DNA of 64,000 nt from Candidatus Ozemobacteraceae bacterium. GTDB taxonomy: Bacteria; Muiribacteriota; Ozemobacteria; Ozemobacterales; Ozemobacteraceae. Positions within the stretch are counted from its first letter, which is position 1. Each line of letters begins with the position of its first letter. The stretch is taken from contig DAOOQQ010000016.1 of NCBI GenBank assembly GCA_035388825.1, positions 12,334 to 76,333 on the forward strand, given 5' to 3'. The notes beneath the pieces are model-generated. The model saw only the letters and a list, made by a program, of their open reading frames with translations. It ran no database searches and was not told the origin of the DNA. A program made the translations under genes and the position numbers. Shown here piece by piece: positions 25,181 to 64,000 of the stretch.

Positions 25181-25253
25181 GGGGCTGTAGCTCAGCTGGG
25201 AGAGCGCTACATTCGCATTGTAGAGGCCGTCGGTTCGATCCCGATCAGCTCCA
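25181..25253 (+). tRNA. tRNA-Ala (anticodon CGC)
   Basis: Cloverleaf folded by hand. Acceptor stem GGGGCTG/CAGCTCC has the G3:U70 Ala identity pair. D-arm is GCTCAGCTGGGAGAGC. Anticodon loop TTCGCAT. T-arm GGTTCGATCC. No encoded CCA. Confidence 0.85.
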
Positions 25254-25291
25254 CTGAAGGGCAATCCACGATTGCCCACAATTATCCGAGA

Positions 25292-25317: not shown

Positions 25318-25419
25318 CTTTTAACCGTCCCTAATCGTCCCGTATCGTTTTTGTAAATCCGGGGGTATCTGGGGGTATTGTTGGGGGTATCGACGTATAT
25401 TCGAAGGAGCGATACCCCC

Positions 25420-30905: not shown

Positions 30906-31115
30906 TCACGCCATCACATCCTTAACAAGCCCTGGAACTGCCTGCCTTGTGACGGAAGGCTCCAGGGCGTTCTTGAACAATCGTTCGAGAAAGCCCATGC
31001 TATCTCCTTCTTGCATCCCAAGTGGCAATCGGGGTCGATACGAATCGATCACCCGTTCCAAGGGAATCATTTCGAGAACGTCAGGCGGAAGAGAGGAATT
31101 TCCCAGGATTCGCAG
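30906..31115 (-). pseudogene. IS256-family transposase internal fragment
   Basis: …PLGMQEGDSMGFLERLFKNALE…PGLVKDV resembles the central region of IS256 Tpase (…GFMIQSGESEETWTTFFEYLKERGL…VISDAHKGL). Out of phase with fragment 29294-29567. Confidence 0.45.
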
Positions 31116-34100: not shown

Positions 34101-36163
34101 TCGTCCCTGAGGATCTCGCCCGTCGTCCGGACGATCTCGCCGCGCCCCGGGCCGGCTTTCTGCTTGCGCGCGAGGTTCCGAATTCCCCGGAAGATGCCGA
34201 TCAGATCGCCGTGCGCGATGCGGCTCGACATGCACAGCTGGAATTGGAACTCGATATCATCGGCTGAAAAGATGAGGTGGCAGTCAGCCTTTTCCTGGTC
34301 TCGCCCAGCCCTGCCGGCCTCCTGGAGATAGTTTTCGAGGGAACCTGGAATCTCGGTGTGGATCACCACCCGGACGTCGGGCTTGTCGACGCCCATGCCG
34401 AAAGCGTTCGTGGCGCACATCACCCGGAGACGGCCGGCCAGGAACTCCTCCTGCACACGCCGCTTGTCGTCGGGGGTGCGGCCCGCGTGAAAGAAGTCGG
34501 CCTTAAACCCCGATGCCTGAAGTTTCTTGGCGAGGTTTTCGGCCGCCTTGCGTTTTGCGGTGAACAGGATCGCGCCGCCCCCGTCTCGGAGCCCCTCTTT
34601 CAGGATCTCGATGGCAAGCCCGATCTTGTTGTATCCGTCCGGGTTCGCGTCGCGGCCGTTCATCGTGTCGAGCCCGTGAACATGGAACCGGAGATTCTTC
34701 CGATCGGCCGTGCCGATGAACAGGTGCATCTCTTTGCCGGCCTCCTGTCGGAAATAGGTGCGTATCTCCTCGATCACGTCGAGCTTCGCCGTGGCGGTGA
34801 AGCAGGCAATCGGCGGCAGGGAGGCGGTTTCCCCGAGCACCTCCTTCAGGAACGAGCACAGGAACAGGTAGTCGGGCCGGAAATCGTGGCCCCATTTCGA
34901 CAGGCAGTGCGCCTCGTCGACGACGACAAGGCCGATCTCCCGCTGGGAAAGGGTGTCGCGGAACGAGCGGTTGCGCATCTGCTCGGGGGCGACCCACAGG
35001 ATGTCGATATCGCCGAGGGCGACTTTTTCGTGGGTCTCTGCCCGCTCGAAGACGGAAAGCAGGCCGTTGAGCGCCCCGACGTTCGGGATGCCGCGCCGTG
35101 CGAGGGCGTCGACCTGGTCTTTCATCAGCGATTGGAGCGGCGAGATGATGAGGGTCAGCAGGTTTCTCTGCCGCGCCTGCATCAGTGCGGGAAGCTGGTA
35201 ACAGAGCGACTTGCCGCCGCCGGTCGGCAGGACGACGAGGCAGTCCCGGCCTTCGAGGATCGCTTCGACGACATCCTGCTGGGAAACGGGCGGCGGCCCT
35301 TCGAGAACGGGCCTGAATGCGTCGAAGGGGTGAAAAAACCGCTTGAGCGACTCGAGGGGTGAATGATACTCCCGGCAATACTCGCATGTACCGCACGGCC
35401 TGCGCCGAAGGGCATGAAGGATCTCGACGGCCCGGGGAAACGCATGGACCACCCACGGAGCGAGTCGCGACATGCCGTCTGCGACGGAAAGCCAGGCAAG
35501 CGCCATCGCAAGGGCGATCCACTCCGGCCGGCGCCCGCCGCCGGTGTCGAAAAGTTCTTCAAGGGCTTTCCGGCAGGCTTTTCCGGAAAAGGTCTCGCGC
35601 GCCTGGCGGAACGTCTCGTCAAGGTCCAGGGGCTTCGCCCCGGTTTCACGGGCGATGGCCGCAGCGCAACCGCGTGTCACGTCATCCTGGCCAAGCAGAC
35701 ACAGATACAGCGGCAGAAGCGGGTCGGCGCGGAACTGCCCGAGCTGTTCCCGAAAAAGGGCGAGCGCCGCCTCGGAATCGCGCAGCGGGTCGTTCCGGCT
35801 CGATTCGGTCGGCTTGTATCCTTTCCATAGTTTATGATATGGGTGCCGCGGCCAGGCCAGCGGCGACAGGAGGAGCGTATCGATGACCGGGAGTTTCAGC
35901 AGGGCATGATCGGGAGCATGTCGTTTCAGCCACTCGAGATCATGCGCCAGGACATTGTGCCCGAGGACGAACCCCGAATCGCGGCCATATATCTCGAGGC
36001 TTTTCAAGACAACCCGCGGATCGTTCCACGGCCCCGTCTCCCTGAACGCCTGCTGTCCCTCCCGAAACGCCCCCGCCGCCAGCAATGTCCCCGAGACAGG
36101 ATGCACCTCGAGATCGACCGCCACGATTCCGTCGAATATGCTCGCCAACTCGTTTCTCATCAC
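31067..36163 (-). CDS. Giant multidomain DNA enzyme: N-terminal DEDDh 3'-5' exonuclease, then a RecQ-family SF2 helicase, then a UvrD/Rep-like SF1 helicase (1698 aa)
   Basis: VAVDLE…HNVLAHD exo motifs. Zn-ribbon RRRPCGTCEYC. RecQ motifs LVVLPTGGGKSLCYQLPAL, VVVDEAHCLSKWGHDFRPDY and QEAGRAGRD. UvrD motifs ILILAGPGSGKTK, ILADEYQD, VGDDDQNIYEWKG, TMHASKGLEF and VAMSRAQ. Confidence 0.8.
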   Translation of the reverse strand: MMRNELASIFDGIVAVDLEVHPVSGTLLAAGAFREGQQAFRETGPWNDPRVVLKSLEIYGRDSGFVLGHNVLAHDLEWLKRHAPDHALLKLPVIDTLLLSPLAWPRHPYHKLWKGYKPTESSRNDPLRDSEAALALFREQLGQFRADPLLPLYLCLLGQDDVTRGCAAAIARETGAKPLDLDETFRQARETFSGKACRKALEELFDTGGGRRPEWIALAMALAWLSVADGMSRLAPWVVHAFPRAVEILHALRRRPCGTCEYCREYHSPLESLKRFFHPFDAFRPVLEGPPPVSQQDVVEAILEGRDCLVVLPTGGGKSLCYQLPALMQARQRNLLTLIISPLQSLMKDQVDALARRGIPNVGALNGLLSVFERAETHEKVALGDIDILWVAPEQMRNRSFRDTLSQREIGLVVVDEAHCLSKWGHDFRPDYLFLCSFLKEVLGETASLPPIACFTATAKLDVIEEIRTYFRQEAGKEMHLFIGTADRKNLRFHVHGLDTMNGRDANPDGYNKIGLAIEILKEGLRDGGGAILFTAKRKAAENLAKKLQASGFKADFFHAGRTPDDKRRVQEEFLAGRLRVMCATNAFGMGVDKPDVRVVIHTEIPGSLENYLQEAGRAGRDQEKADCHLIFSADDIEFQFQLCMSSRIAHGDLIGIFRGIRNLARKQKAGPGRGEIVRTTGEILRDEETTTDKIDASEPMADTKVKIAISWLEKLNRLERSWNRTSVIEAKPVPPTLDAALEIIRKLGLTEYRQAQWGRLIRHLYNANADDLLNTDAMTVQLGQSTENLISTLREMRNVGLISHSINCTALFNNLPDEKDDAVSRWDSFCRIESRILDMLAETEAWGDEDGSTLDLRLCATQLSADRSFENVRAKDLFPVLKIWRRDGLVTFVSQGYDRCRLKRSMSPGEIRSMIPYRQKIGSGYLDLLRKRCNRQGREQRVEFTVDELENLLPVKDPPRTSSESFNAVRRVLLSLNETHALHIQNGLSVFRPALTLKLKDDRPPAAGECRSLDDFFDEKIAQVHVMGKYAEFGKSDIRSAMTMVKEYFSLSRQEFYDRYFHRRKELLQYPTGEESLARITGKALQEGHRPEYSLSDAQRAIVTEGKTRNILILAGPGSGKTKSLVHRAAWLVRVERVPRGGVLVVAFNRSTVLEIRKRLRELLGNDSQYIFVSTYHGLALRIASRSLAAQAGGDRATRREDLMKTIMKDAVSALESVTGEDRDSMTEGLLSRVRYILADEYQDIDEDEYRMLALLSRKDEPDAEREVRLLAVGDDDQNIYEWKGSDVKFIRRFEADYKPAVHRLLTNYRSSEPITSFCEEFIRRLPGRMKANEKLVSAKAGMLVPENSRRPSVIRVAGPAQVFGEVLAEVERLRKDGFAPEDIAILTFANDDLFRVKYLLETRGFATHCIRRPEVPLLNVREIYHLIQYMESQPEREMRQAGFRELVGQGRLSRGGAGNPWEELIDQLVEDYLEETASPSPTQFVSFMHDVSREKRMGMLKRPGRITLSTMHASKGLEFPAVVVVPEGLKAGPDSHRVAYVAMSRAQNALSIIGTDAPGSIAHEIFSHTKTETRSESIHDNLPDIRVWEMGMSDVYLSFAGRSNAHEQIAQVMNTMSYEHPGNLKNNGIFVDGIEVCHLSKRAAESLPQKMDGRHVIEAKCHAIVRRHREDTDPAGKSQLLCESWEIPLFRLTFSK

Positions 36164-40211: not shown

Positions 40212-41324
40212 ATGTATGGTGATCTCTATATGAATGATCACCCGTGTGCCGATGAACAATTGAAAGATGAAATGCGTAGTGGCATCATACGGCTCTTGGC
40301 GGATCTACGGCAGCCGGGGGCCTGCGAACTGCTTGCCATGCTTGAAAAGCAGATCGGTTGGCGCGTGCGGCAGTATTTTTTCGAGGTCGTCGGAGCGTTT
40401 CGGGATGACCACCTTCTGACGAGCTACCAACGGGAGTATTTCCGAACCACCCTCACCGACAAGGAGTGCATTGATGCGCTTCATGGCGGGGGGCGGCGGT
40501 GGGATGAATCCCGGAGCACGATCGACGAGCTTTTTCAGTGCGGCAAAGCGTATCGTTCATCAAAAGCCTTTCAGGAGATGATCACGTTCTCGGCCCAGTT
40601 CAGGAATTACGCCCCCTACAACAACATGCTGGTGAAGCTCCAGAATCCGTCGTGCAGCTTCTACGCAACGCGCGATGACTGGGAACGCCGGTTCAATCGC
40701 AGGGTCAATGAAGAGGCGCGAGCGATGCTGATTCTCGCTCCCATGCATCCCGTCATGCTGGTGTATGACCTCGATTCGACCACGGGCCCCGCCCTTCCGG
40801 AGAAACTGCTGGATTTCACGAGGGTCGACGGTCGCTTCGATCAAAAGCTGCTTCCCCGGTTGCTCGACAACTGTCTTCGGGATTCCATCGTCGTTGAGTT
40901 CGTCGAGCTTTCGTCCACGTTTGGCGGTTACGCAACGACACGTTGCCGAGGCACCGGCGCAAAGATGAGGGTCGCCATCCATGACAAGCTGCAGCCCGCC
41001 TCTCGCTTCTCGGTTCTCTGCCACGAACTCGCCCATATCTATCTCGGGCATCTGGGCTCGGACGAAGACAACTTCTGGCCGACCCGCATCAACCTGACGC
41101 ACGCGGCGATTGAAGTCGAGGCCGAAGCGACGGCTTACATCGTCTGTGTACGGCTCGGCCTCAAACCCTGTTCTGAAGCGTATATCTGCAGTTATATCGA
41201 AAACGATTCGATTCCGGCGGGCGTCAGCATCGAACTGATCACGAAGGTCGCCGGCAAGCTCGAAGAGATGGCAACCCGGCGCCTTCCGGCCCGCAAAGAG
41301 AAACCGCCCAAAAAAGCCCGTTGA
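40212..41324 (+). CDS. Zincin-like metallopeptidase (HExxH; ImmA/IrrE- or ArdC-like) with long N-terminal extension
   Basis: HELAHIYLGH motif near the C-terminus. The central region has an ArdC-N/DUF1738-like pattern (weak). Start could also be 40230. Confidence 0.5.
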   Translation: MYGDLYMNDHPCADEQLKDEMRSGIIRLLADLRQPGACELLAMLEKQIGWRVRQYFFEVVGAFRDDHLLTSYQREYFRTTLTDKECIDALHGGGRRWDESRSTIDELFQCGKAYRSSKAFQEMITFSAQFRNYAPYNNMLVKLQNPSCSFYATRDDWERRFNRRVNEEARAMLILAPMHPVMLVYDLDSTTGPALPEKLLDFTRVDGRFDQKLLPRLLDNCLRDSIVVEFVELSSTFGGYATTRCRGTGAKMRVAIHDKLQPASRFSVLCHELAHIYLGHLGSDEDNFWPTRINLTHAAIEVEAEATAYIVCVRLGLKPCSEAYICSYIENDSIPAGVSIELITKVAGKLEEMATRRLPARKEKPPKKAR

Positions 41325-43348: not shown

Positions 43349-43642
43349 ATGAGCGTTCGAGGCGTCGTCAAGCGATACGCGCTGATCATCGAGAAGGTGA
43401 CGCGGTGCCGGTTTCCCACGCTGGAGGCGATTCAGCGGTTCCTGTGCTCGCACGGGTTCGAGGTGTCGAAGCGGACGATCCAGCGGGACATCGAAGGCAT
43501 CGAGCTCGAGTTCGGCATTTCGATCACGTATGACCGGCCGCACCGGGGATATGCTCTCATCCGGGAAGAGGGCGAAACCCCCGACATCTTCCTCCGCTTT
43601 CTCGCGATGACCGGCGGCCGCGGAACCGGAACCCAGACATGA
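43349..43642 (+). CDS. Small HTH protein (DeoR/YafY-type HTH_11-like N-domain, no WYL domain)
   Basis: …FPTLEAIQRFLCSHGFEVSKRTIQRDIEGIEL… resembles the N-terminal HTH of YafY/PafBC/BrxR-type regulators. Only 97 aa. Confidence 0.45.
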   Translation: MSVRGVVKRYALIIEKVTRCRFPTLEAIQRFLCSHGFEVSKRTIQRDIEGIELEFGISITYDRPHRGYALIREEGETPDIFLRFLAMTGGRGTGTQT

Positions 43643-43870
43643 GCCCCGGAAGGATAGAGCGCTTCAGAACGTCACCTGGCAACCACGACACCTCTTGTCA
43701 TAGTCAGTGATATAGGATTCACCGGAATTCTGTCGGTCTGATGCTCCGCACCTGAAGTTTCGGTCCGTTTAGGCGACGCACACATCATCCCAGTCATTCT
43801 TTTCGCGACCGGCGGTTTCATCATGAAGCCGGTCATCGTTCGACGCGCGACGGAAACGAACGGAGGAACC

Positions 43871-46066
43871 ATGGGTACCATGCTGATCAACTGTGACGAC
43901 ACCCAGGCGGGCGTGCGGTTCCTGGCCCTGCGGTGCATGCGGCACTGCATCGCGACCCACCATGCGCTGTTCGACAAGGAGGCCATCGAGAAAATCTTCG
44001 CGTTCCTGCCGAAGCCCGAACTCGTCAGCCTGCTGACGCGGCTCCACCCCAAGCTCCGGCGCGTGGGGAAACGCTGGATCAGCCACGGCCTGTACCAGTA
44101 TGCGTTCCTCGAGCCGCCCGTTCCCGACGACGTTGCCCGTGCCGTCGCCGAGCTCGAGCCCGTTCATGCCCTCTATATCCCCGAGATCCTCGCGGTCATC
44201 GACCGCCTGCTCGCCGACATTGCGCCCGACGGCGAGACGCCGAACTCGGCGCCGTTCCCACAACTGGCGGAGATCACGCGCGTGTTCCGGCTTTCCGAAG
44301 ACGAGAGCGCGATCCTGGCGTTCTGCTTCATCAACGGCATCCATTCGCCGTTCAACGAGGTCATCCAGAAGCTCGGCGGCTTCCTGAACTTCGGGTTGAG
44401 CGGCAACCTCGTCTCGCTGTTCCACCCCATTCCCCGCGCGCGCGCCGACGCGATCTGCTCGAGCGGCGGCCTTCTCAGGCGGCTCGGCTTCATCAACGAG
44501 AACCTGGTGCCGACCCCCGAGATCTGCGAGTTTCTCCAGGGCTTCCGGACCCGGCCGCTCAACGATATGTATTACACGATGTATGACGAACGGCCGGTTC
44601 CCGCCGACCGCCTCGTGATGCGAACGGAAGACATCGAGACGATCGGCACGCTCGTAGCGAACCGCCGTCCGGGTGAAGGGCTCGACATCCTGTTCTCCGG
44701 CCCGGCCGGAACGGGCAAAACGGAATCTGCCCGCTCGCTCGCGACGTTTTTCGGTCTTCGACTCTTCGAGATCCGCGCCCGATGCGACACCCAGGAAAAC
44801 GTCGCAGAAGTCCCCTTCCGCATGCGCGCCCTTCGTGCCTGCCGGAACGCCCTCGCCGGCCGAGCCGACGCCGCGATCCTGATCGACGAGGCCGACGCCA
44901 TGGTCGCAACTCCCCTTGCCGCGTTCGATCTCACGCCCGGAACAGCCGGCAAAGCCGTTATCAACGAGACCCTCGACACGGCCGCCGACATTCAGATCTG
45001 GATCGTCAACCATGCGGAAACGCTCGATCCGTCCGTCCGGAGACGGTTCGCCCACGCCGTCCGGTTCGAACGAGCCTCGGCGAGGATGCGCCGGATGATC
45101 TGGGAAACCGCCCGCGCACGGTATGGAATGACCCGACTGCTCGACGACGCGGCGATCGCCGACCTCGCCGAACGGTACGAGACGGATGCGGGAGGCATCG
45201 ACTCCGCCCTCAGGCACACCCGGCATCTTTCCGGAAACGGCGTTGCCCCGGGTGAGGTCCTGGCTCAGATCGAACGGCTTCTCGCCGGCCAGGCGCGGTT
45301 CACACCGGGCGAGTCCGGTCATGGGCCGGCGGGCTTCGATCGCGAGCCCACGGTGGGCATCGAGCATCTGAACATCGAGCCGCGCGCCGATCTCGACATG
45401 ATAGTGCACGCTATAGCAGGTGTATCGGGTGAAGACCGGCTTCCGGCGCTCCGAATCCTTCTGCAGGGCCCTCCCGGAACCGGGAAGTCGCGGTTCGCCG
45501 CGGAACTCGCCCGCCGCATCGGGAGGCCCCTGCGGGTGAAGACGGCCGCCGCGATCCTCAGCCCCTTCGTCGGGCTGGCCGAGCGGGCCGTGCACGAGGC
45601 GTTCCGCGAAGCAGCTTCCGAAGGCGCGGTGCTGTTCTTCGACGAGATCGACAGCCTGCTGTTCACACGCGACCGGGCATCGGCGAGCTGGGACGTCTCC
45701 CGTGTCAACGAACTGCTTTCGGCGATGGACAGCCACCCGGGCATCTTCCTCGCCGCGACGAACCACCTCCAGGCCATCGACCCTGCCGCCCTGCGCCGGT
45801 TCGAGTTCAGACTGGACTTCGGCCCCCTCGACGGAAACGACGCGAAAGCCTTTTACGAAACCCTGCTGGCGCCCCTGGCGGGCGTGGAAACTCCCGAACA
45901 GGTTCATCGCCGGTTCGCATCTCTTCCCCGGTTGACGCCGGCCGATTTCACCCGGGTCCGCAGGCGGTTCACTCTCCGGACGGCTTCCCGTCCCGATCAC
46001 GCAGCCCTGATCGGCGCACTCGAAGCCGGATGCACCAGGGACCAGTGGAAAGGAGCACGATCATGA
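43871..46066 (+). CDS. Tandem-AAA+ ATPase, paralog 1 (N-domain of unknown function; divergent AAA module 1; classical AAA module 2)
   Basis: Module 1 has FSGPAGTGKTE…ILIDEAD. Module 2 has LLQGPPGTGKS…LFFDEIDSLL…ATNH…IDPAALRRFEF (classical-clade AAA second region of homology). GGAGGAA RBS. Confidence 0.75.
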   Translation: MGTMLINCDDTQAGVRFLALRCMRHCIATHHALFDKEAIEKIFAFLPKPELVSLLTRLHPKLRRVGKRWISHGLYQYAFLEPPVPDDVARAVAELEPVHALYIPEILAVIDRLLADIAPDGETPNSAPFPQLAEITRVFRLSEDESAILAFCFINGIHSPFNEVIQKLGGFLNFGLSGNLVSLFHPIPRARADAICSSGGLLRRLGFINENLVPTPEICEFLQGFRTRPLNDMYYTMYDERPVPADRLVMRTEDIETIGTLVANRRPGEGLDILFSGPAGTGKTESARSLATFFGLRLFEIRARCDTQENVAEVPFRMRALRACRNALAGRADAAILIDEADAMVATPLAAFDLTPGTAGKAVINETLDTAADIQIWIVNHAETLDPSVRRRFAHAVRFERASARMRRMIWETARARYGMTRLLDDAAIADLAERYETDAGGIDSALRHTRHLSGNGVAPGEVLAQIERLLAGQARFTPGESGHGPAGFDREPTVGIEHLNIEPRADLDMIVHAIAGVSGEDRLPALRILLQGPPGTGKSRFAAELARRIGRPLRVKTAAAILSPFVGLAERAVHEAFREAASEGAVLFFDEIDSLLFTRDRASASWDVSRVNELLSAMDSHPGIFLAATNHLQAIDPAALRRFEFRLDFGPLDGNDAKAFYETLLAPLAGVETPEQVHRRFASLPRLTPADFTRVRRRFTLRTASRPDHAALIGALEAGCTRDQWKGARS

Positions 46067-48375
46067 GCAGATGGACGAATCTGAATAACCGGTTGAAACA
46101 CCGAATCCAACATTCAGGGGCCCTGTATTTCGACGCAAGAAACCCCCTTCATCTCTGTGACAAAGGCGCCCAACTCATCGTTCTGCGGGCAGGCGTCACG
46201 TATCTGATGCGTTTCGGCAAGTCCCTGGATCGCGAGCCGGCAACGCCCCTTGATCGCGAGCCGGCGAGGGCCCTATTCGATCTTCTTCCGGTTTCGGCGC
46301 GAAAACCGTTCTTCAAGAACCTGTATCGGGTCATGGCGCCACGTGAAACGGCCCTCAGAAAAGACAAACGCTTCGATAATCTCTTCAGCAGCCCTCCGGA
46401 CTTCGACGATATCGTCACATTCCTGAGGTATTACCCAGATTCGCATCAGGTTCTGCATGAGGGTTTTCAGATAGAGGTTGAGCGGCTCGAACGCAACATA
46501 GCCTCCCATGCCTCACCATTCATGAAGAAACTCGAGGAGGTGAAGTCGACATTCCGACTGAGCCCTATCGAAGCTCATATCGTGGCTCTCGGCGCCCTCT
46601 ACCAATTGTCGAAAATCATGGAATGTCTCGTCGACTCGTTGCCTCGATGCCGCCATGGCAGGCGTATGCAGTTGAAACTTTTCGAGTTTCTCGATGCGAA
46701 TCGTCTGGATATGCTCAAATATGCATCCCCTGAAGGAGCGCTTCAGAAACTCGGCCTGCTCGACAGGGACGGCGACATCAGGGGCGAGGTTGTCGAGTTT
46801 CTCGTCGGCGGGCGCAGAGAGCCTCTGACGAGTTCGTATTTCGATCGGTTCAAAGGCCCATCTCTTCCGCTCGAAAAGCTCATGATCGTAAAGAAAGATG
46901 TCGAGACGATCCGGACGCTTCTTTCGAATCGGAAACCGAAACAGGGCATCAACATTCTGCTCGCCGGCCCGCCTGGCACCGGAAAGACCGAGACCGTGCA
47001 TTCGCTCGCGAAGGAGCTCGGCCTCAATCTGTTCGAGATCGCCTCGATGCAGAAAAGGCATGACGGCGATGGCGATATCGGCCAGAGTAACGATTACTTT
47101 CGCATGAGAGCTCTCGTCGCATGCAGGTATGCGTTCGGCGATTACCCCGATACCGCCGTGCTGATCGACGAATCGGATTCCCTTCTCGGCGGAGGCGGCT
47201 CAAGAAGCCTCTTCGGCCCTTCGAGGTCTTCCCTCGGAAAGGCGATGATCAATGACGGGCTCGACACGGCCGTCTGCCCACAGTTCTGGATCGCCAACGA
47301 TATCGACGGAATCGATCCGTCGACGAGGCGCCGGTTCGATTACGCGATCAGGTACGAGCGCCCGACGCCGAAAGACCGCGTGTCGATCTGGGAAACGGCG
47401 GCTAACAAACACGGGATGGCCGGCCTTCTGCGGCCCGAAGACCTCGAACGGTTCGCCCGGGAATGGCCTGTCAGCGCAGGCGGCATCGACTCCGCCCTCA
47501 GGAATGCGGCGCGCGTTCCGAAGAAAGCGATGACCCGTTCCGAATTCGTCGCCTATATCAACCGCCTCATCGAATCACAGCTTCTGTTCACCGAAGAGGA
47601 AGGGAAGGCCGAAACCGTCCGGGCCGCATCGGAGGAGCAGGTCGCGATCGAGATGCTGAACATCGAGCCGGCGGCGAACCTGAAATGCATTCTCGAGGTC
47701 GTAGCCAGGTGGCGTGAAGCACCGGAAAAGCGGGGCCTGAACATCCTGCTCCAGGGGCCGCCCGGCACGGGAAAGACGCATTTCGCGCGCAGGCTCGCCG
47801 AGCTGCTGGGCCGACCTCTGCATGCGAAGACCGGCTCCGAGATCCTGAGCCCCTACGTCGGGATGACGGAGAAGACGATCCGCGAGGTGTTCCGGCAGGC
47901 CGGCCGCGAGTCGGCGGTGCTGTTCCTCGACGAGATCGACAGCCTGCTTTCGAGCCGGGAAAAGGCCGTGCGAAGCTGGGAGGTGACGCAGGTGAACGAA
48001 CTGCTCTCGGCGCTCGAGTCGTTCGACGGGGTGTTCGTGGCGGCGACGAACCATGTCTCGACGCTGGATTCAGCCTCGATGCGGCGCTTCCACTTCCAGC
48101 TCGAGTTCGGGCCGCTGACGCCGGCAGGTGCGGAGACGTTCTATCGCGATCTTCTCGCCGGGTTTGCGGGCGGCGACGTTCCGGCCGGGGTGGCGGCGCA
48201 ACTCAGGCGGCTGACGGGGCTCGTTCCGAGCGATTTCGCGAACGTGCGCAAGCGCCTCACGCTGGTGCCCGGCATGACCGCGACGCACGACGAGCTTCTC
48301 GGCGGCCTCGCCGACATGTGCAAAGCCCGCTTCCCGCGCCGAAAGCAGGCGATCGGCTTCAACAACAACGGATGA
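46063..48375 (+). CDS. Tandem-AAA+ ATPase, paralog 2 (same architecture as 43871-46066)
   Basis: LLAGPPGTGKTE…LIDESD and LLQGPPGTGKTH…LFLDEIDSLL…ATNH…LDSASMRRFHF. Start overlaps the upstream stop (ATGA). Confidence 0.75.
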   Translation: MSRWTNLNNRLKHRIQHSGALYFDARNPLHLCDKGAQLIVLRAGVTYLMRFGKSLDREPATPLDREPARALFDLLPVSARKPFFKNLYRVMAPRETALRKDKRFDNLFSSPPDFDDIVTFLRYYPDSHQVLHEGFQIEVERLERNIASHASPFMKKLEEVKSTFRLSPIEAHIVALGALYQLSKIMECLVDSLPRCRHGRRMQLKLFEFLDANRLDMLKYASPEGALQKLGLLDRDGDIRGEVVEFLVGGRREPLTSSYFDRFKGPSLPLEKLMIVKKDVETIRTLLSNRKPKQGINILLAGPPGTGKTETVHSLAKELGLNLFEIASMQKRHDGDGDIGQSNDYFRMRALVACRYAFGDYPDTAVLIDESDSLLGGGGSRSLFGPSRSSLGKAMINDGLDTAVCPQFWIANDIDGIDPSTRRRFDYAIRYERPTPKDRVSIWETAANKHGMAGLLRPEDLERFAREWPVSAGGIDSALRNAARVPKKAMTRSEFVAYINRLIESQLLFTEEEGKAETVRAASEEQVAIEMLNIEPAANLKCILEVVARWREAPEKRGLNILLQGPPGTGKTHFARRLAELLGRPLHAKTGSEILSPYVGMTEKTIREVFRQAGRESAVLFLDEIDSLLSSREKAVRSWEVTQVNELLSALESFDGVFVAATNHVSTLDSASMRRFHFQLEFGPLTPAGAETFYRDLLAGFAGGDVPAGVAAQLRRLTGLVPSDFANVRKRLTLVPGMTATHDELLGGLADMCKARFPRRKQAIGFNNNG

Positions 48376-48938
48376 AGGAGGGAGACGTGAAAGCGCTCAT
48401 CATCGCCGACGTCGACGATCTCAAATGGCGTGGCGGAAGCGGCAAGGCGGATATCGTCATCTCGTGCGGGGATACGGCGGAGTGCCTGGTCCTGGAAGCG
48501 GCACGAGCGTTCATGTGCGACTGCATCGTGGCGGTGAAAGGGAACCACGACCCAGATACCCCGTTCATGCCGCCGGTAGTCGATCTGCATCTCGCCGTGC
48601 GGGAGTTCGGCGGGCTGAGATTCGCCGGGTTCGGCGGGGCATGGCGGTACAAGCCACGCGGGCTTCATCTCTACGAACAGGATGAAGTCGAGGCCGAACT
48701 TGCGAAACTGCCGCCCGTGGACATTCTCGTCTGCCACAACTCCCCTCTTGGGGTTCACGACAGACCTGACGGCATTCACACAGGTTTTTCAGGGCTCAAC
48801 ACGTATATCCGGCAGTCCCGGCCCCGGCTTCTGATTCACGGTCACCAGCACCAGAACATCGAGACGCTCGTCGACACGACCCGCGTCATCGGCGTCTACG
48901 GCCATCGCCTGCTCGATCTGCCCAGCGTATTGCCATGA
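48372..48938 (+). CDS. Calcineurin-like metallophosphoesterase
   Basis: …DIVISCGD…, VKGNHD and LIHGHQH metal-ligand motifs. Start overlaps the AAA2 stop (ATGA). Confidence 0.7.
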   Translation: MKEGDVKALIIADVDDLKWRGGSGKADIVISCGDTAECLVLEAARAFMCDCIVAVKGNHDPDTPFMPPVVDLHLAVREFGGLRFAGFGGAWRYKPRGLHLYEQDEVEAELAKLPPVDILVCHNSPLGVHDRPDGIHTGFSGLNTYIRQSRPRLLIHGHQHQNIETLVDTTRVIGVYGHRLLDLPSVLP

Positions 48939-48955
48939 ACAAAAGGATGAGCTGA

Positions 48956-49459
48956 ATGGAATTCAAACATACGATCGATGCCATTGCGAAGAAGACACCG
49001 AGAGAAGAAGCCGATGCTCGTCGAGCAGGTCTTCTTCGACTGGATGAGCCTGCGAGAGGGGCGGAGGTCGGGCTCTGGTGGTTGATCGAAAACAACATCT
49101 TTCGTCTGGCCCAGCCATGGTCCCAAGCACCTGAGGAGGACGGCTGGCACATGATCGAGGACATCCATGACCATGCCTGGGCTGACATGAAAGCCGCTTT
49201 GGCGTCGAGGTTTCCTTCGATCATTCACCTCAGATACAACGACCCCGAACGAGGTCGGGTCTGGTATCGCCCTCGAGAGAATACTTTCTTCATTACCTGC
49301 TCCAAGCTCATCAAAGCTGAACAAGCCATCATTCGTACAATCATGGAGAAGTTCGGGATAACCGCAAAGGCCGTCCGTGTCGTGAATGACCCACAGTATG
49401 ACGTTCGTCCGTTGCCATTGCAGGACAGGAATACACCGAATGAAATTCCACGCATTTGA
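48956..49459 (+). CDS. Hypothetical protein
   Basis: ORF 18 nt after the phosphoesterase gene. No recognisable domain. Confidence 0.4.
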   Translation: MEFKHTIDAIAKKTPREEADARRAGLLRLDEPARGAEVGLWWLIENNIFRLAQPWSQAPEEDGWHMIEDIHDHAWADMKAALASRFPSIIHLRYNDPERGRVWYRPRENTFFITCSKLIKAEQAIIRTIMEKFGITAKAVRVVNDPQYDVRPLPLQDRNTPNEIPRI

Positions 49460-49743
49460 ATGGAGAAGTATATATGCCTGGGTTTATAGATGATCTCAGA
49501 ATTCTCGTCAGGCAATGCCTTGCCTGCGACGGCAGGGATCGGTTCGTTCGGTCTCTTGGATACAGAAACATTTCGAAGGGGCTTCGCCGGATCGATGCGT
49601 TTCTCTGCGGCGGAGAACCGGCGCAGGATCGTCTCGACCGGCTGGCGCATATTCTCGGCCTGGATCCGGCTGACGTCGTATGCAAAGCACCAACGCTATC
49701 ACTGGCCCACATGGGGTGCCTCAAACCCGGGGGAATATTATGA
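49456..49743 (+). CDS. Hypothetical protein; N-terminal module (RSLGYRNISKGLRRIDAFLCG…DRLAHILGLDP) paralogous to the N-terminus of ORF 63392-63985
   Basis: Shared R-x-LGYRN-x-x-KG-x-RRI-x-x-FL-x-G…L-x-L-x-P motif between the two ORFs. Confidence 0.4.
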   Translation: MNGEVYMPGFIDDLRILVRQCLACDGRDRFVRSLGYRNISKGLRRIDAFLCGGEPAQDRLDRLAHILGLDPADVVCKAPTLSLAHMGCLKPGGIL

Positions 49744-50372
49744 TGATTCCAATACAGTATTCAGATCCAAGCGATTCGAAGACGTCCTTTCATATTGTTA
49801 CTCATATTCAAGCCAGTGAAATCAAGTATTTCACCGATAAGCGTTTTGGAGAGTGCTTTTGGTCGAATGATGTAAAGGCACCGAAAGAAGAACAATGCCA
49901 GGAATATATGATGCGGTTGTTTTCTTTGGCAAGCCTTCCTCCAGAATCGAAATTCACTTCAGCTTTCATAAAATCACCATGCTTTTCTTGTGAGCATTGT
50001 TGGGAATATGGATCTATATCCTTATTTTTGGAATTAGAAAGGATAAGAGAATCAACAATCGTCTTCAATGGCGATGTGAAGAATTTGGCTTTCAAGATTT
50101 TCGGCCAGAATTGCTCACCGAAAAAGTATTTGAGATTTCATTCCCTTGACATCCCAGCATTTCACATGTTGGTCCATCTTCAAAGATACTATTGGAATTA
50201 CATGGCTCATGCGATGTTCAAAAAGCCGTTTTTCCCTCGAATGGTTGGAAGCTATTTCGAAGTAAGGATTTTGCGGCCGATTACCAGGAAGGACATAAGC
50301 ATGATTGTAATTCCGATGGATCTTGATAAAGCCTCGGTTAAAAGGGTCGAAGAATTGGCTAACTCAGATTGA
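49740..50372 (+). CDS. Hypothetical protein (AT-rich gene)
   Basis: ORF only. Low GC. Confidence 0.35.
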   Translation: MMIPIQYSDPSDSKTSFHIVTHIQASEIKYFTDKRFGECFWSNDVKAPKEEQCQEYMMRLFSLASLPPESKFTSAFIKSPCFSCEHCWEYGSISLFLELERIRESTIVFNGDVKNLAFKIFGQNCSPKKYLRFHSLDIPAFHMLVHLQRYYWNYMAHAMFKKPFFPRMVGSYFEVRILRPITRKDISMIVIPMDLDKASVKRVEELANSD

Positions 50373-50424
50373 AGAACGCCCTGACAAATGATTCGACAAG
50401 GTAATTATCAAAAGGAGGTCTCGA

Positions 50425-50838
50425 ATGAGTGTTCTTCTCCTCGAAGACAACGAGTCAAGAATCAGGCGCTTCGAGAAACTCGGGCTGAACGTGCTTGTCT
50501 GCCGTAATGCATTCGAGGCGATCGCCAGGTTGTATACGCATCGCGATACGATACGCCTCATCTCCCTCGATCATGATCTGACGCCGCGCGAGAACGCCTG
50601 TGGCTCGCTCGGAATCGCCTGCGCCTGTCATGTCGTCGACCTTCTTTGTGTCATGCCGACCTTCTGCCCGGTGATGATCCACACATCGAACGAACAGGCC
50701 GCGGCCTTGATGAAACACCGCCTCGTCAGTTGCGGCTGGCCCGTCATCTGGGTGAAAACGGATGCACCCTTTCCCGACGACTGGATCGAAACTCTCTGGA
50801 AGGAAGCCGTACGTTCCGCCGGGCTCATGCCTTCATGA
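50425..50838 (+). CDS. Small stand-alone CheY-like (receiver-fold) protein with conserved Cys cluster, paralog A
   Basis: LLLEDNESRI…LISLDHDL…CGSLGIACACHVVD…FCPVMIHTSNE…WPVIWVKTD…PDDWI. Acidic, Asp, Thr/Ser and Lys sit at the canonical receiver positions. GGAGG RBS. Confidence 0.55.
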   Translation: MSVLLLEDNESRIRRFEKLGLNVLVCRNAFEAIARLYTHRDTIRLISLDHDLTPRENACGSLGIACACHVVDLLCVMPTFCPVMIHTSNEQAAALMKHRLVSCGWPVIWVKTDAPFPDDWIETLWKEAVRSAGLMPS

Positions 50839-50868
50839 TCTCGAGATATCGACGATCGAGGTGAGCAG

Positions 50869-51342
50869 ATGATCGAACATCTGGATAGAGTGACAGCAGG
50901 CGAAGCCATTCTCCATTTGTGGATCACCTGTCTTCGAAGTCGTGTCGAGCCGAAGCTGGCGTTCATCGAGATCGATGAGGGTGTGATCCGGTGCCGCCCC
51001 AAAACGCTGGATAAATGCCGATTCTTCAAGGAGTATCTTCTTCCCTTCGAAGCCGGAAGCCCACCGGAAGCGGGATTGGATATCGTCACCACCTCGACGG
51101 CTCGGCTTCAACGCGGCGTTCTTTTCTATCATCTTCGACGGAAGGAACTTCTTCTCCTCCTCCCCTGCCGGGAGATGGCGAATCCGGTATTGATGTTCGC
51201 TGTTCTCCGAGAATTGGGCCTTGATTCGCTGCCGGTGGGATTCGCCAGGCGAAGAAAGGACGGCAGAATCCGACGCATTCCAAATCTGAGAGTTCTCTAC
51301 AGATTTCTCCGTCTTCACCCTGATATTCAGATATATGTCTGA
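50869..51342 (+). CDS. Hypothetical protein (partner gene downstream of REC-like paralog A)
   Basis: ORF only. Confidence 0.35.
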   Translation: MIEHLDRVTAGEAILHLWITCLRSRVEPKLAFIEIDEGVIRCRPKTLDKCRFFKEYLLPFEAGSPPEAGLDIVTTSTARLQRGVLFYHLRRKELLLLLPCREMANPVLMFAVLRELGLDSLPVGFARRRKDGRIRRIPNLRVLYRFLRLHPDIQIYV

Positions 51343-51443
51343 TCGCTCGTCATCTCCTGCGTTCGTATGAAATCGCCGACGGCACCCGGGGTGAAACATG
51401 TTTGTTTCTATTTATGTCGGTATAGATAAGAAAGAGGTCTCAC

Positions 51444-51878
51444 ATGAAAATTCTGGTTCTCGAAGACGACCCATTTCGGATTTCGATCATGAAAGCCCTT
51501 CTGAAGAAAGAGCGAATTCCATTCTCGATCTGTCCGGACCCCATCGATTTCCTCGTGGAACTGACCTTCAAATCTGCCGAAACGACGATCATCTCCCTGG
51601 ACCATGATCTGTCACGCATCGTACGACCGTGCGGCATCTACAGCTTCGATTGCGGCTGCGCCGTGGTCAGGTTCATGAGCCGGATGAAACCTGTTTGCCC
51701 CGTCCTGGTCCATTCCCGGAACGATCAAGAACGGCTGAGGATGATCGAAGATCTGACCGGCGCCGGATGGCTCGCTCAGCCCGTCATCGAAGACCCGACG
51801 AATGAAACCAACTGGGTCGAAAGCGCATGGATCGAGGCAATTCGTACAATGCACAAGAATGGGGAAAATAACCCCTAA
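51444..51878 (+). CDS. Small stand-alone CheY-like protein with Cys cluster, paralog B
   Basis: ILVLEDDPFRI…IISLDHDL…CGIYSFDCGCAVV…VCPVLVHSRND… Same motif positions as paralogs A and C. Confidence 0.55.
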   Translation: MKILVLEDDPFRISIMKALLKKERIPFSICPDPIDFLVELTFKSAETTIISLDHDLSRIVRPCGIYSFDCGCAVVRFMSRMKPVCPVLVHSRNDQERLRMIEDLTGAGWLAQPVIEDPTNETNWVESAWIEAIRTMHKNGENNP

Positions 51879-51896
51879 CCAACCGCGTGAGAATGC

Positions 51897-51925
51897 TTGA
51901 CATATAGAAACCATTTCTATATATT
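51897..51925 (+). promoter_or_regulatory. Sigma-70-like promoter TTGACA, 17-bp spacer, TATATT, with palindromic operator (TATAGAAA-cca-TTTCTATA) in the spacer; the ATG at 51932 suggests a leaderless transcript
   Basis: Hexamers, 17-bp spacer and 8-bp inverted-repeat arms seen directly. A second copy lies at about 54836-54864. Confidence 0.55.
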
Positions 51926-51931
51926 AGTTTT

Positions 51932-52156
51932 ATGACTACCAAGCAGCGCTTCCGGAACAAATACCGCCTCGAGATCCGCGAGCGGGACCACAATCCGGCG
52001 CATGCGCATCTTTTCGGCGGCGGTGTCGATGTGGTCATCGATCTGATCACTCTCGAGACGTCGGGCGACTGCCCCCGCGATCTCCTGGACGAGGTCGTCG
52101 GGTATGTGAGGGCGCACCGCGATGAACTGATGGAGGAGTGGAAAAAATGGCACTGA
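51932..52156 (+). CDS. DUF4160-family small protein
   Basis: …NPAHAHLF… matches the DUF4160 signature (HNPPHFH-like). Overlaps the downstream DUF2442 gene. Confidence 0.55.
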   Translation: MTTKQRFRNKYRLEIRERDHNPAHAHLFGGGVDVVIDLITLETSGDCPRDLLDEVVGYVRAHRDELMEEWKKWH

Positions 52157-52670
52157 TGAAACGGCCAAGACTGACGGCCATCAAGGCGATGCCGAATTTC
52201 AAAATGCGCCTGACTTTCCTGAACGGGGCAACCTACGTCGTCGACTTTCTTCCGCTTTTCGAGGAATCGAAAGGGCTTGCCCCTTTGCGCAATCAGAAGG
52301 CATTCGCCGACGCCATGATGGACGAATGGGGCTGGGAGATCGAATGGCCGGCGTTCGACATTCAGATCGGCGCCGACACCCTCTGGATGGACGCTCAGGC
52401 GCAGGCCGCGAAAGATCCCGCGACCCGCGACTTCATCATGTGGCGGGCGAGGAACGGCCTTTCCCTTGCCGACGCAGCCCGGGCCCTTGGCATCACGTCG
52501 CGAACCGTCTCGGCCTACGGCACGGGCGAAAGGCCGGTCCCGCTCTACATCACCCTTGCCTGCAAAGGCTGGGAGGCCGAACGCCAGCCCGGACACAAAA
52601 AAGCGGCCTGATTACAAATCAGGTCGGGTTGTCGTTCGCCGATATCGTATGCAATCCAGAGACATCAAGA
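52077..52670 (+). repeat. Direct repeat copy 1 (3' end of DUF4160 gene plus complete DUF2442-HTH gene), about 98% identical to 58008-58600 over the coding part
   Basis: Hand alignment: identical 157-aa ORFs. 3' flanks are homologous but diverged. Confidence 0.7.
52138..52611 (+). CDS. DUF2442 domain protein fused to XRE-like HTH (copy 1)
   Basis: …PRLTAIKAMPNFKMRLTFLNGATYVVDF… is the DUF2442 pattern. C-terminal LSLADAARALGITSRTVSAY is an HTH. The 157-aa protein is identical to copy 2 at 58068-58541. Confidence 0.55.
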   Translation: MEKMALMKRPRLTAIKAMPNFKMRLTFLNGATYVVDFLPLFEESKGLAPLRNQKAFADAMMDEWGWEIEWPAFDIQIGADTLWMDAQAQAAKDPATRDFIMWRARNGLSLADAARALGITSRTVSAYGTGERPVPLYITLACKGWEAERQPGHKKAA

Positions 52671-52921: not shown

Positions 52922-54664
52922 ATGGCTTCACAGTTACTAAAAGAAGTTCTCATTTCCGCGAAAAAGTGTGATCTTTTGCTTCCTGATTTTCAGCGAGATT
53001 TTGTGTGGAAGCCACCCGCAGTGATCAAGCTCATTTGCTCAATATTAAACAAGTATCCAATCGGGGGACTGCTCTTCATGGAGACCGAAGGGGATTATCA
53101 GACAAGGCCCCTTGATGGTATCCCCCCAAGAGACGAAAATGAAAATCAGCCACCCATCAAGACACTAATCTTAGACGGTCAACAAAGATTAACTTCATGC
53201 TATAAAGCGTTCTTCGGAGAAATGAAGGATGCGCGCTACCCCGGCCGCTACTTCTTTGACTATAAAAAGTATGTTCTTTCTCCAAATGTGACAGGTAGCG
53301 AAATTGAAGATTATATTGTATTTCGAAAAAGGAACGAGGTTCAAGCACAACTTTCTCAGACAGCCGCAGAACAAACCGCGGGATTGTTTCCATTGGATAT
53401 CATTTTCGACAAACCTCGCGGAACGGACTACACCCAATGGCTCGCGGGTTTCAATTTTTCTGCGGCTGGTAACGACCCCGAAAAATATGCCCATTTAACA
53501 TCTATAACAGCATCCTTTCAAAGAATAATTGAGAATGTAACCTCCTATCAACTTCAGTTTGAAGCAATTCCTCGTGCGACCAGCCCAGAAGTAATATGCA
53601 CGGTATTCGAGACAATAAACACAACCGGTAAACGATTAACTGTTTTTGATCTACTTGTTGCACGATGTTTTCCAAAACAGATAAAGCTCAGAGAAATGCT
53701 CATCAAAGCCGTCGATGATCCCGTCATAAGAAGGTTTGACGATGACGAGGGAGAAGAACTTTGCACAATTGCTCTGCCAAGAATCATTTCATTAATGCAT
53801 AAGAATTCTGCAAAGCGGGGTGACTTGTTAACACTTGAACCTGAGGTAATTGGTCAAAGATGGGATGAGGCAGTGTCTGCTCTTAGGAAAAGCCTCGAGC
53901 TTGTATGGAAGGTTTTTGGTTCAATTGGCCTTCGATTTGTTCCGCTCCCAGACATGATTCCCCCGATAGCTGTTATTTTAAGCCATCCGAAGTTCGATCA
54001 ATCCAATCCAGAAAACCAGAACATGCTTAAGAAATGGTATTGGAGGTGTGTGTTTTCACAGTATTTTAGCAGTTCTTCGGATACAAAAGCGGCTCGAACC
54101 GTAAAAGAATGGACCGATTCAAATGAAGGCTGGCTCTTTGAAAGCAAGAATATTCCTGAGGTGGTCAAGAACTTTTCATTAAGCAAATATGTTTTATCAG
54201 ATGTTGCACGAAGTGATAATGCAATATACCGAGGAGTTATGAGTTTACTCATTGCAAATGGCGCAGAGGATTTTGGCCCTTCAAGGACAAAGATTGTCGA
54301 TTTACTACCTGGAGAGGTCGATGACCACCACATTTATCCGGTAAGGTTCCTCGAGCCTTCTGGTATTCGCGGAAACACAGTCAATTTTATCGCCAATAGA
54401 ACCCCATTATATAAACTAACAAATCAAAACATCGGAAACGACGCCCCGTGTGTGTATTTACAAGATGCTAACAGGGTATCTACTGAAGTAAGGAAAATGC
54501 TTCCTTCACATGGTATTCCTGAAATTATTTTCAAGGAATTTACGAAGGAGCAATATGAAAGATTTACACGAGATCGGGCATCGACGCTTCTTGAGATGAT
54601 AAAAAAGGCGGTTGAAGTGAACGAAATTGACGAGAGCCCAACAGGCGGTTCGAGCGGAAACTGA
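52922..54664 (+). CDS. GmrSD-family Type IV (modification-dependent) restriction endonuclease (DUF262/ParB-like plus DUF1524/His-Me finger)
   Basis: N-terminal LLPDFQRDFVW…LDGQQRLT DUF262 motifs. C-terminal …VDDHHIYPV… DUF1524 motif. Low-GC gene. Confidence 0.7.
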   Translation: MASQLLKEVLISAKKCDLLLPDFQRDFVWKPPAVIKLICSILNKYPIGGLLFMETEGDYQTRPLDGIPPRDENENQPPIKTLILDGQQRLTSCYKAFFGEMKDARYPGRYFFDYKKYVLSPNVTGSEIEDYIVFRKRNEVQAQLSQTAAEQTAGLFPLDIIFDKPRGTDYTQWLAGFNFSAAGNDPEKYAHLTSITASFQRIIENVTSYQLQFEAIPRATSPEVICTVFETINTTGKRLTVFDLLVARCFPKQIKLREMLIKAVDDPVIRRFDDDEGEELCTIALPRIISLMHKNSAKRGDLLTLEPEVIGQRWDEAVSALRKSLELVWKVFGSIGLRFVPLPDMIPPIAVILSHPKFDQSNPENQNMLKKWYWRCVFSQYFSSSSDTKAARTVKEWTDSNEGWLFESKNIPEVVKNFSLSKYVLSDVARSDNAIYRGVMSLLIANGAEDFGPSRTKIVDLLPGEVDDHHIYPVRFLEPSGIRGNTVNFIANRTPLYKLTNQNIGNDAPCVYLQDANRVSTEVRKMLPSHGIPEIIFKEFTKEQYERFTRDRASTLLEMIKKAVEVNEIDESPTGGSSGN

Positions 54665-54866
54665 ACGCCGGCCAGCGGTCTTGCATACGCCAGGCATGGG
54701 CTAATCCTTCAATTCAGCTCAACCGTGTTGCTCGAAGTCGAATGGAGGTTTGAATGCGTGGGCGTCCATATTTTTCCAGCCTCCTTCAAAGCCGCGCAGG
54801 AGCATCTCGCAAGTATGGGTTTCGAGAATGTTTGACATATAGAAACTATTTCTATATATTCGTTTT

Positions 54867-54968
54867 ATGACCACCAAGCACCGCTTCCGGAACAAATACC
54901 GCCTCGAGATCCGCGAGCGGGACCACAATCCGGCGCATGCGCATCTTTTCCGCGCAGGAAATCCATGA
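54867..54968 (+). pseudogene. Truncated DUF4160 gene (first about 28 codons conserved, then diverges to a stop at codon 34) with its own promoter/operator copy upstream (about 54836-54864)
   Basis: About 117 bp (54829-54945) is about 93% identical to 51890-52005. Confidence 0.6.
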
Positions 54969-57985: not shown

Positions 57986-58007
57986 AAAATTAATATGTAG
58001 AACAGTG

Positions 58008-58600
58008 CGATCTTCTGGACGAGGTTGTCGGGTATGTGAGGGCGCACCGCGATGAACTGCTGGAGGTGTGGAAAAAATGGCACTGATGAAACGGCCAAGA
58101 CTGACGGCCATCAAGGCGATGCCGAATTTCAAAATGCGCCTGACTTTCCTGAACGGGGCAACCTACGTCGTCGACTTTCTTCCGCTTTTCGAGGAATCGA
58201 AAGGGCTTGCCCCTTTGCGCAATCAGAAGGCATTCGCCGACGCCATGATGGACGAATGGGGCTGGGAGATCGAATGGCCGGCGTTCGACATTCAGATCGG
58301 CGCCGACACCCTCTGGATGGACGCTCAGGCGCAGGCCGCGAAAGATCCCGCGACCCGCGACTTCATCATGTGGCGGGCGAGGAACGGCCTTTCCCTTGCC
58401 GACGCAGCCCGGGCCCTTGGCATCACGTCGCGAACCGTCTCGGCCTACGGCACGGGCGAAAGGCCGGTCCCGCTCTACATCACCCTTGCCTGCAAAGGCT
58501 GGGAGGCCGAACGCCAGCCAGGACACAAAAAAGCGGCCTGATTACATATCAGCCTGGGCCGTCGTTTACCGGCATCGTATGCAAAGCCGTGTCAGAGGCG
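58008..58600 (+). repeat. Direct repeat copy 2 (3' fragment of DUF4160 gene plus complete DUF2442-HTH gene)
   Basis: Aligned by hand to 52077-52670. Confidence 0.7.
58068..58541 (+). CDS. DUF2442 domain protein fused to XRE-like HTH (copy 2, identical protein to 52138-52611)
   Basis: Identical 157-aa translation in the ORF track. Confidence 0.55.
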   Translation: MEKMALMKRPRLTAIKAMPNFKMRLTFLNGATYVVDFLPLFEESKGLAPLRNQKAFADAMMDEWGWEIEWPAFDIQIGADTLWMDAQAQAAKDPATRDFIMWRARNGLSLADAARALGITSRTVSAYGTGERPVPLYITLACKGWEAERQPGHKKAA

Positions 58601-63985: not shown

Positions 63986-64000
63986 GGCTTGCCCGACCAG

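Follow-up and report, generated by a model that had tools for sequence, protein, structure and literature searches.

A mosaic island array of tandem-AAA+ ATPase, metallophosphoesterase and cREC genes as a plausible new stress or defence module

IetAS (Gao_Iet), a described defence system, pairs a classical AAA+ motor with a hydrolase, and the ATPases of the Cdc48/p97/VAT and AFG2/Rix7 group stack two AAA rings; the second ring (D2) combines the second region of homology with an aromatic pore loop. Tandem AAA+ ATPases resembling SpoVK/CDC48 are linked to Type III-A CoCoNuT systems; these have Walker motifs in the C-terminal ring only and carry leucine-rich repeat (LRR) and beta-barrel C-terminal domains (PMC11090510). 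On the hydrolase side, the processing of cyclic phosphates has been proposed as the task of cRec domains in settings of RNA repair or centred on NAD (PMC7824862), the enzymatic activity itself being only a prediction. We analysed a gene array combining tandem-AAA+ ATPases, a metallophosphoesterase (MPE) and cREC proteins in a stretch of 64,000 nucleotides, hereafter the window, from Candidatus Ozemobacteraceae bacterium (assembly GCA_035388825.1, contig DAOOQQ010000016.1, positions 12,334 to 76,333 of the forward strand). An earlier, sequence-only reading had proposed a triplet of two ATPases and an MPE; the array is a mosaic of eight same-strand genes and a second cREC gene, not a triplet, and appears to be a plausible new stress or defence module. 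Judged from sequence, the integrated reading, an inducible unfoldase pair with a phosphoesterase cassette for defence or damage response, would hold with a probability of about 0.4.

The eight genes run from 43349 to 50838 and encode, in order, a helix-turn-helix (HTH) protein, ATPases A and B, the MPE, the proteins D167 and E89, a 210-aa protein and cREC1. The sequence-only reading had closed the operon at 48938, the end of the MPE gene, where in fact same-strand genes continue with gaps of at most 52 nt to 50838, and the second cREC gene extends the array to 51878. From the A/B junction to cREC1, the successive gaps are −4, 11, 17, 14, −4 and 52 nt. The short gaps of 11–17 nt and the ribosome-binding sites inside the ends of preceding genes indicate co-transcription. 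Translational coupling by ATGA overlaps had been described for all three genes of the triplet: the overlap between A and B, with AGGAG upstream, is there, whereas the B/MPE junction is probably an 11-nt gap with the MPE starting from a GTG at 48387.

ATPase A (731 aa; 43871–46066, + strand) begins with an ATG preceded by a GGAGG ribosome-binding site, an alternative upstream ATG at 43823 giving 747 aa. ATPase B (770 aa; 46063–48375, + strand) was confirmed in the open reading frame (ORF) listing. The two proteins are indeed paralogous tandem-AAA+ ATPases, as first described: they share 38.7% identity across 706 aa (E value 1e-143), and each contains two stretches matching PF00004 (AAA), with E values of 1e-35 and 3e-42 and scores of 123 and 145 bits against a cut-off of 21.2, which places them among type II, classical-clade AAA+ proteins. 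Motifs were called from alignments of A and B with 12 and then 117 homologs (14 and 119 sequences). Walker A, Walker B, sensor-1 Asn and Arg-finger motifs are present in both the first ring (D1) and D2. The D1 motifs read GxPGTGKT, DE[AS]D, the sensor Asn and an S.RRRF[DA][YF] Arg-finger, and the ring is without an aromatic pore loop; with its catalytic motifs complete, D1 is not especially degenerate, and its description as a divergent module was not borne out. The classical-clade character of the second module was: D2 has GPPGTGK[TS], a [YF]VG aromatic pore loop, DE[IV]D and the second region of homology, ATN...D.A..RRF. D2 looks like a translocating ring, and the solved structures nearest to it are VAT, Cdc48, AFG2 and Rix7. 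The complete double rings and the D2 pore loop are marks of a putative hexameric protein unfoldase or remodeller.

The N-domain, comprising residues 1–290 in B, is all-alpha. It had been reported as lacking any nameable motif, and in Pfam, NCBIfam, PADLOC and PHROGs there is no model for it; its structure gave no match among solved or viral structures. A 24-nt tandem duplication within the B N-domain (46223–46270) encodes LDREPATP/LDREPARA and falls in a low-confidence loop of the structure model. At the other end of the protein, [IMLVF]GF occurs within the last 15 residues in 114 of 119 family members and forms the exact C-terminal end in 64; B carries this tail (...QAIGFNNNG, 48340–48372) and A does not.

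A search of 5.8 billion proteins recovered 233 ATPase relatives, mostly of 720–770 aa, and the few with a source name came from Riflebacteria, Kiritimatiellae and Lentisphaeria metagenome-assembled genomes (MAGs). A profile of the N-domain matched 1,053 representatives (50%-identity clusters) among 1.84 billion, 386 of them at E ≤ 1e-10. The full-length matches listed are proteins of ~700–850 aa that begin, or almost begin, with the domain, and the many shorter ones (~200–590 aa) are probably fragments. No ATPase relative was found among 2.9 million viral contigs. By sequence comparison, the ATPases form a distinct family, unnamed in the libraries searched.

We gathered 93 family loci (822 kb) from genomes and metagenomes, 82 of which had a scored ATPase and 64 of which remained after dereplication. 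The genome scan with a full-length alignment keyed on generic Walker motifs, returned mostly Cdc48/FtsH-like genes and left only L005–L009 as useful loci; for the metagenome scan, a family-specific sub-alignment was used. The neighbour counts are raw, with no calibration against random loci, and are lower bounds, and the crude gene calling can pick spurious opposite-strand ORFs. A single ATPase gene is present in 78 of the 82 loci. Pairing, which the sequence-only reading treated as part of the system, is restricted to the window's closest relatives: two genes were found in four loci, namely L088 and L096/L099, all close relatives of the window, and L089, where the second gene is a different, single-AAA gene. 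Recurring with the closest relatives (at least 43% identity to B) are the HTH, cREC, E89 and D167 domains.

Across the 64 dereplicated loci, a WYL-WCX regulator or a sigma54 activator lies within four genes of the ATPase in 10, one of these having an RtcR-CARF protein. The clpP gene adjoins the ATPase in at least five loci, and within four genes we found RNase T/DEDDh in four, an FtsH-like M41 peptidase in two, SprT in one, and ADP-ribosylglycohydrolase with CinA in one. PTP phosphatases are also among the hydrolase neighbours of the family, and a small protein of ~115 aa is encoded immediately upstream of the ATPase in seven loci. Two distant family members illustrate the range. In L087 (3726–11262), the array consists of an RtcR-CARF activator, two small ORFs, the ATPase, ClpP, ADP-ribosylglycohydrolase and CinA; in L085 (9642–11726), it consists of the ATPase, an HTH protein and an FtsH-like protein with a degenerate AAA and an M41 peptidase domain. 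Plasmid relatives near WYL genes occur in Desulfosarcina and in Leisingera, the latter together with ADP-ribosylglycohydrolase, a PD-(D/E)XK nuclease and UvrD, and DNA polymerase II adjoins one plasmid relative. A PADLOC scan of 94 same-strand neighbours gave scattered defence-candidate matches, such as PDC-S48 for the DEDDh genes.

The window's own candidate regulator is the HTH protein of 97 aa (43349–43642, + strand), first described as DeoR/YafY-like. That label stands insofar as the protein corresponds to the DNA-binding half of WYL-type regulators: it has a PADLOC WYL match (2e-5), and in L088 two HTH-WYL-WCX proteins have N-termini 44–49% identical to it. A WYL regulator proper has the HTH followed by WYL and WCX, and the 97-aa protein corresponds to the HTH part only, with no WYL domain. 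Homologs with 64–67% identity are located directly downstream of family ATPases in L085, L096 and L100.

The MPE gene (48387–48938, + strand) encodes 183 aa from a GTG start, an in-frame ATG at 48372 giving 188 aa. The GTG lies five bases beyond an AAGGAGG site, homologs start there (residue 6 of the longer form), and one gene caller gave 183 aa. The protein is a calcineurin-like metallophosphoesterase as first read, with Pfam matches to Metallophos_2 (30.9 bits versus a cut-off of 27; 3e-7) and Metallophos (29.4 versus 21.5). It falls within a very large family of ~178-aa 'Icc-related' proteins, with 700 matches, the best 120 of which are 53–66% identical to it. Its five metal-ligand motifs, AD.D, GD..D, GNHD, HNSP and HGHQH, show at least 90% conservation across these 120 homologs, motif I being D-x-D instead of D-x-H. 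The best solved relative, a weak one (E value 0.004), is the phosphodiesterase MPPED2, and the only NCBIfam match, below cut-off, is the YfcE subfamily; by these comparisons the MPE resembles MPPED2/YfcE-type phosphodiesterases. The Mre11/SbcD type suggested earlier was not supported: no such PDB chain was matched at E ≤ 1, and the 183 aa make up the core only, without a capping or nuclease domain. In PADLOC, the MPE matched PDC-S10 (PDLC04908) over 159 residues (E value 7e-14, 49.6 bits; profile positions 9–185 of 223), a profile with no curated cut-off.

Downstream of the MPE gene and separated from it by 17 nt, D167 (167 aa; 48956–49459, + strand) had no family matches in Pfam, PADLOC, PHROGs or NCBIfam, and its predicted structure, built from two sequences, was unusable (predicted local distance difference test score 41.6). 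A contig of 4 kb (L182) carries in a row cREC, an MPE with 66% identity, a D167 with 51% identity and a DnaB-like helicase; MPE-D167 and cREC thus form a small conserved cassette of their own. Next to the ATPase pair of L088, a single protein joins the D167 domain to a PTP-SAK phosphatase. E89 (89 aa; 49474–49743, + strand) follows after 14 nt and has a domain that recurs beside family ATPases; with tblastn it was found in L096/L099 (49% identity), in L086 and at the window end. The gene for the 210-aa protein (F210; 49740–50372, + strand) overlaps E89 by 4 nt, has a G+C content (GC) of 39% and gave no homolog in the related loci.

After a gap of 52 nt comes cREC1 (137 aa; 50425–50838, + strand; PF20274, 1.3e-8, 35.8 bits versus a cut-off of 27), to which a gene with 63% identity sits between two family ATPases in L096. 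cREC2 (144 aa; 51444–51878, + strand; PF20274, 6e-6, 27.3 bits versus 27) has 48.5% identity to the cREC gene after the ATPase in L086; cREC genes are found near the closest ATPase relatives in L086, L088 and L096. Between the two, on the minus strand, an ORF of 188 aa (50833–51399) was called also in metagenome contigs, but whether it is a real gene or an array member is doubtful. Near its end, the window contains part of a second related module on the minus strand: a DnaB-N-domain protein (721 aa; 60086–62251), with 31% identity to a gene that two family ATPases flank in L096; cREC3 (62880–63260), 59% identical to cREC1; and, by tblastn, an E89-like ORF running off the window end (63818–64000). 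Further ATPase genes may lie just past that end. E89, the 210-aa protein, the 188-aa ORF and the DnaB-N protein matched nothing in PADLOC, PHROGs or NCBIfam, and for the 188-aa ORF no homolog was detected either.

Under the reading of an inducible unfoldase pair with a phosphoesterase cassette, a signal of nucleic-acid damage or infection would switch the array on, such a signal being read in relatives by WYL or RtcR-CARF regulators. Paralog pairs such as Pex1/Pex6 form mixed hexamers; A and B may form one as well, in which only B would bear the IGF tail. The ATPases would unfold or extract a target protein, and the tail could serve as a dock for ClpP or another peptidase, as suggested by the ClpP, M41 and SprT neighbours and by analogy with the IGF loops of ClpX and with proteasomal C-terminal motifs. 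Cyclic-phosphate or nucleotide-derived products would be cleaved by the phosphoesterases, which would thereby either act as effectors or reset the signal; this proposal draws on the likeness of the MPE to MPPED2 and YfcE and on the role proposed for cRec domains (PMC7824862). Because of the location on the island, the likeliest use of the array would be in defence or conflict.

Several observations weigh against this reading. The window HTH protein has no sensor (WYL) domain, and no sigma54 consensus was found upstream of the array, matches across the window being below chance; nor did we find a convincing operator palindrome. Pfam scans of the array and part of the island revealed no protease gene near the array, and tblastn with ClpP and M41 neighbour representatives gave no match anywhere in the window. 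The IGF of ClpX lies in an internal loop and that of the family at the extreme C-terminus, which leaves the docking role an analogy. A bulk Pfam scan of the same 94 same-strand neighbours showed no dominant partner and included housekeeping genes, and such heterogeneous neighbours indicate that the family is not confined to defence islands. No MPE homolog was found in the 93 other family loci (822 kb), and the MPE homologs are usually alone, contrary to the idea of the triplet as a conserved unit. Finally, the GC of individual genes is 66% for A, 60% for B, 62% for the MPE, 53% for D167, 57% for E89, 39% for the 210-aa gene and 53–57% for the cREC genes; this range of 39–66% suggests that the array was put together piecemeal, and given such a mosaic, a joint function of all its genes is not assured.

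The last two points are also what one would expect if the ATPase pair, a roaming MPE-D167 pair and the cREC genes were independent cargo that became neighbours by chance on a mosaic island, an alternative that we consider rather unlikely. Homologs of the MPE with 55–60% identity stand alone in unrelated places, near AddAB-like, toxin–antitoxin or Mrr-helicase genes, the MPE is absent from the family loci and matches a single-gene candidate, PDC-S10, and the GC changes stepwise along the array. Chance does not easily account, however, for cREC genes accompanying a family ATPase in four other distinct loci (L086, L088, L096/L099), for the renewed association of cREC, MPE and D167 in L182, or for the D167–phosphatase fusion beside the ATPase pair in L088, and the gaps of 11–17 nt with ribosome-binding sites in preceding gene ends also speak against it.

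Instead of an anti-phage system, the array could be a module for proteostasis and RNA-end healing under stress or damage, a reading that we regard as unlikely. The ATPases would then clear damaged or stalled protein complexes and feed ClpP-type peptidases, while the work of the phosphoesterases after RNA or DNA damage would be to repair RNA ends carrying a 2',3'-cyclic phosphate or to break down ADP-ribose derivatives. Relatives do lie beside RtcR-type and other sigma54 activators, and their neighbours include ClpP, CinA, ADP-ribosylglycohydrolase and sigma70 genes as well as housekeeping genes; DNA polymerase II or a Y-family polymerase adjoins plasmid relatives, and the contexts proposed for cRec (PMC7824862) are RNA repair and NAD. 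On the other hand, a core stress system would not be expected to be as patchy and rare as this family, the window copy is located on an integrase-bearing island among restriction–modification (RM) and Type IV genes, and the array contains no RNA ligase, RtcA/RtcB or kinase. A function in the replication, maintenance or anti-defence of a mobile element, with the ATPases acting together with nearby DnaB-like proteins, is very improbable: DnaB-N/DnaB-C genes are found in L088, L096, L182 and the window, and integrase and insertion sequence (IS) elements are present, but the ATPases, which bear a pore loop and the second region of homology, belong to the classical clade and not to the DnaC/IstB-type loaders, no relative was found among the viral contigs, and many family members stand singly on chromosomes, away from any mobile-element genes.

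A bolder form of the unfoldase–phosphoesterase reading is distinctly doubtful. In it, the ATPases would be a regulator-coupled, IGF-docking class of double-ring unfoldases serving as a common motor for exchangeable hydrolases, and the A/B hexamer with cREC-MPE-D167 would be a new immunity system that clears cyclic-phosphate or ADP-ribose-derived signals and destroys a phage or host target protein. If the family is such a motor, under WYL/RtcR-type control, it would represent a protein-unfolding branch of bacterial immunity or damage response, and would give a first handle on the function of cREC domains and of the widespread 178-aa 'Icc-related' phosphoesterases. The C-terminal IGF tail and the N-domain are concrete, testable features. 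Should the genes be mere neighbours, less is gained: an AAA+ family that is well delimited yet uncharacterised, and a revision of the proposed triplet.

The surroundings agree with the tRNA-integrated island with RM, Type IV and helicase genes that the sequence-only reading described. The landmarks are a tRNA-Ala (25181–25254), a P4-type integrase (25378–26643) and transposases, and the GC of the window changes from 63% over the first 24 kb to 54% past the tRNA. Further genes of the island encode an MmeI-type enzyme, an IrrE-like protein, a LysR regulator and GmrSD. A DEAD+UvrD fusion of 1,698 aa (31067–36163, minus strand) matches the PADLOC profiles of DpdF (2e-109) and GajB; in Caenimonas sedimenti, a homolog with 37% identity (L006, 11071–12285) lies ~2 kb from a family ATPase gene. 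The IrrE/M78 peptidase-like protein (370 aa; 40212–41324), encoded between the MmeI and LysR genes, has a weak PADLOC match to the C-terminal region of RT_III-A. GmrSD (52922–54664) and an IS remnant are bracketed by a direct repeat of 300 nt with 99% identity (52077–52376 and 58007–58306) and by a repeat of 131 nt with 95% identity (51889–52019 and 54824–54954). The repeats represent a duplicated DUF4160/DUF2442 gene pair, so the GmrSD segment was probably inserted or duplicated. Proteins identical to the locus products are carried by Candidatus Ozemobacteraceae MAGs, and the same gene order with identical proteins was found on four or five anaerobic-digester and metagenome contigs.

Set against the described systems, the D2 ring of A and B finds its best defence-library match in IetA (PADLOC, 1e-34 to 1e-37). 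The NCBIfam model IteA (NF042959) matches D2 only, with E values of 9e-32 and 4e-35 and 110.6 and 121.7 bits against a cut-off of 510. IetA is a protein of ~370 aa with one AAA ring, whereas A and B have two rings and an N-domain of 280 aa, and Pfam and PADLOC scans of 43349–51878 revealed no counterpart in the array of its S8 subtilisin-like protease partner IetS. The proteins share their ring architecture with the Cdc48 group, but at 66–80 bits against a cut-off of 802.65 for the CDC48 model TIGR01243 they are not members: the N-domain is all-alpha without a double-psi barrel, D1 has no aromatic pore loop, and the family tail is a C-terminal IGF and not HbYX. The CoCoNuT-linked ATPases (PMC11090510) are similar in their tandem AAA+ rings, predicted defence operons and RtcR-like regulators; in A and B both rings are intact, the ends differ, and no McrBC-type partner is present. 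ClpX/ClpA-ClpP and FtsH offer the likeness of an unfoldase with a conserved I/L-G-F element, and some relatives have clpP, M41 or SprT beside them, but the window array contains no peptidase gene, none being found by Pfam and PADLOC scans of every gene in 43349–51878.

As in the array, PMC7824862 links cREC with WYL-type regulators and other phosphoesterases; the sections covered here describe links to RNA ligase and NAD processing, and in them we found none to a tandem AAA+ ATPase. At this locus we found no RNA ligase, Macro, NADAR or Nudix domains. The array also differs from the Rtc RNA-repair operon: Pfam scans of its genes found neither RtcA nor RtcB, there is no upstream sigma54 consensus, and an RtcR-like activator occurs only beside a distant relative. 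PDC-S10 is itself a computational single-gene candidate, with no more than a passing mention in the literature searched, and the MPE of the window is embedded in a larger array. In the same literature, we came upon no paper connecting tandem AAA+ ATPases to either metallophosphoesterases or cREC, and, as the sequence-only reading anticipated, no system with this gene set is named in Pfam, NCBIfam, PADLOC or PHROGs. As far as sequence criteria reach, the array does not belong to any named system with a testable definition, generic superfamilies excepted. Systems of this general kind, in which a damage-sensing regulator controls an AAA+ motor and linked hydrolases, are known; the ATPase family, its N-domain and tail, and the combination of genes are undescribed in the libraries and literature searched.

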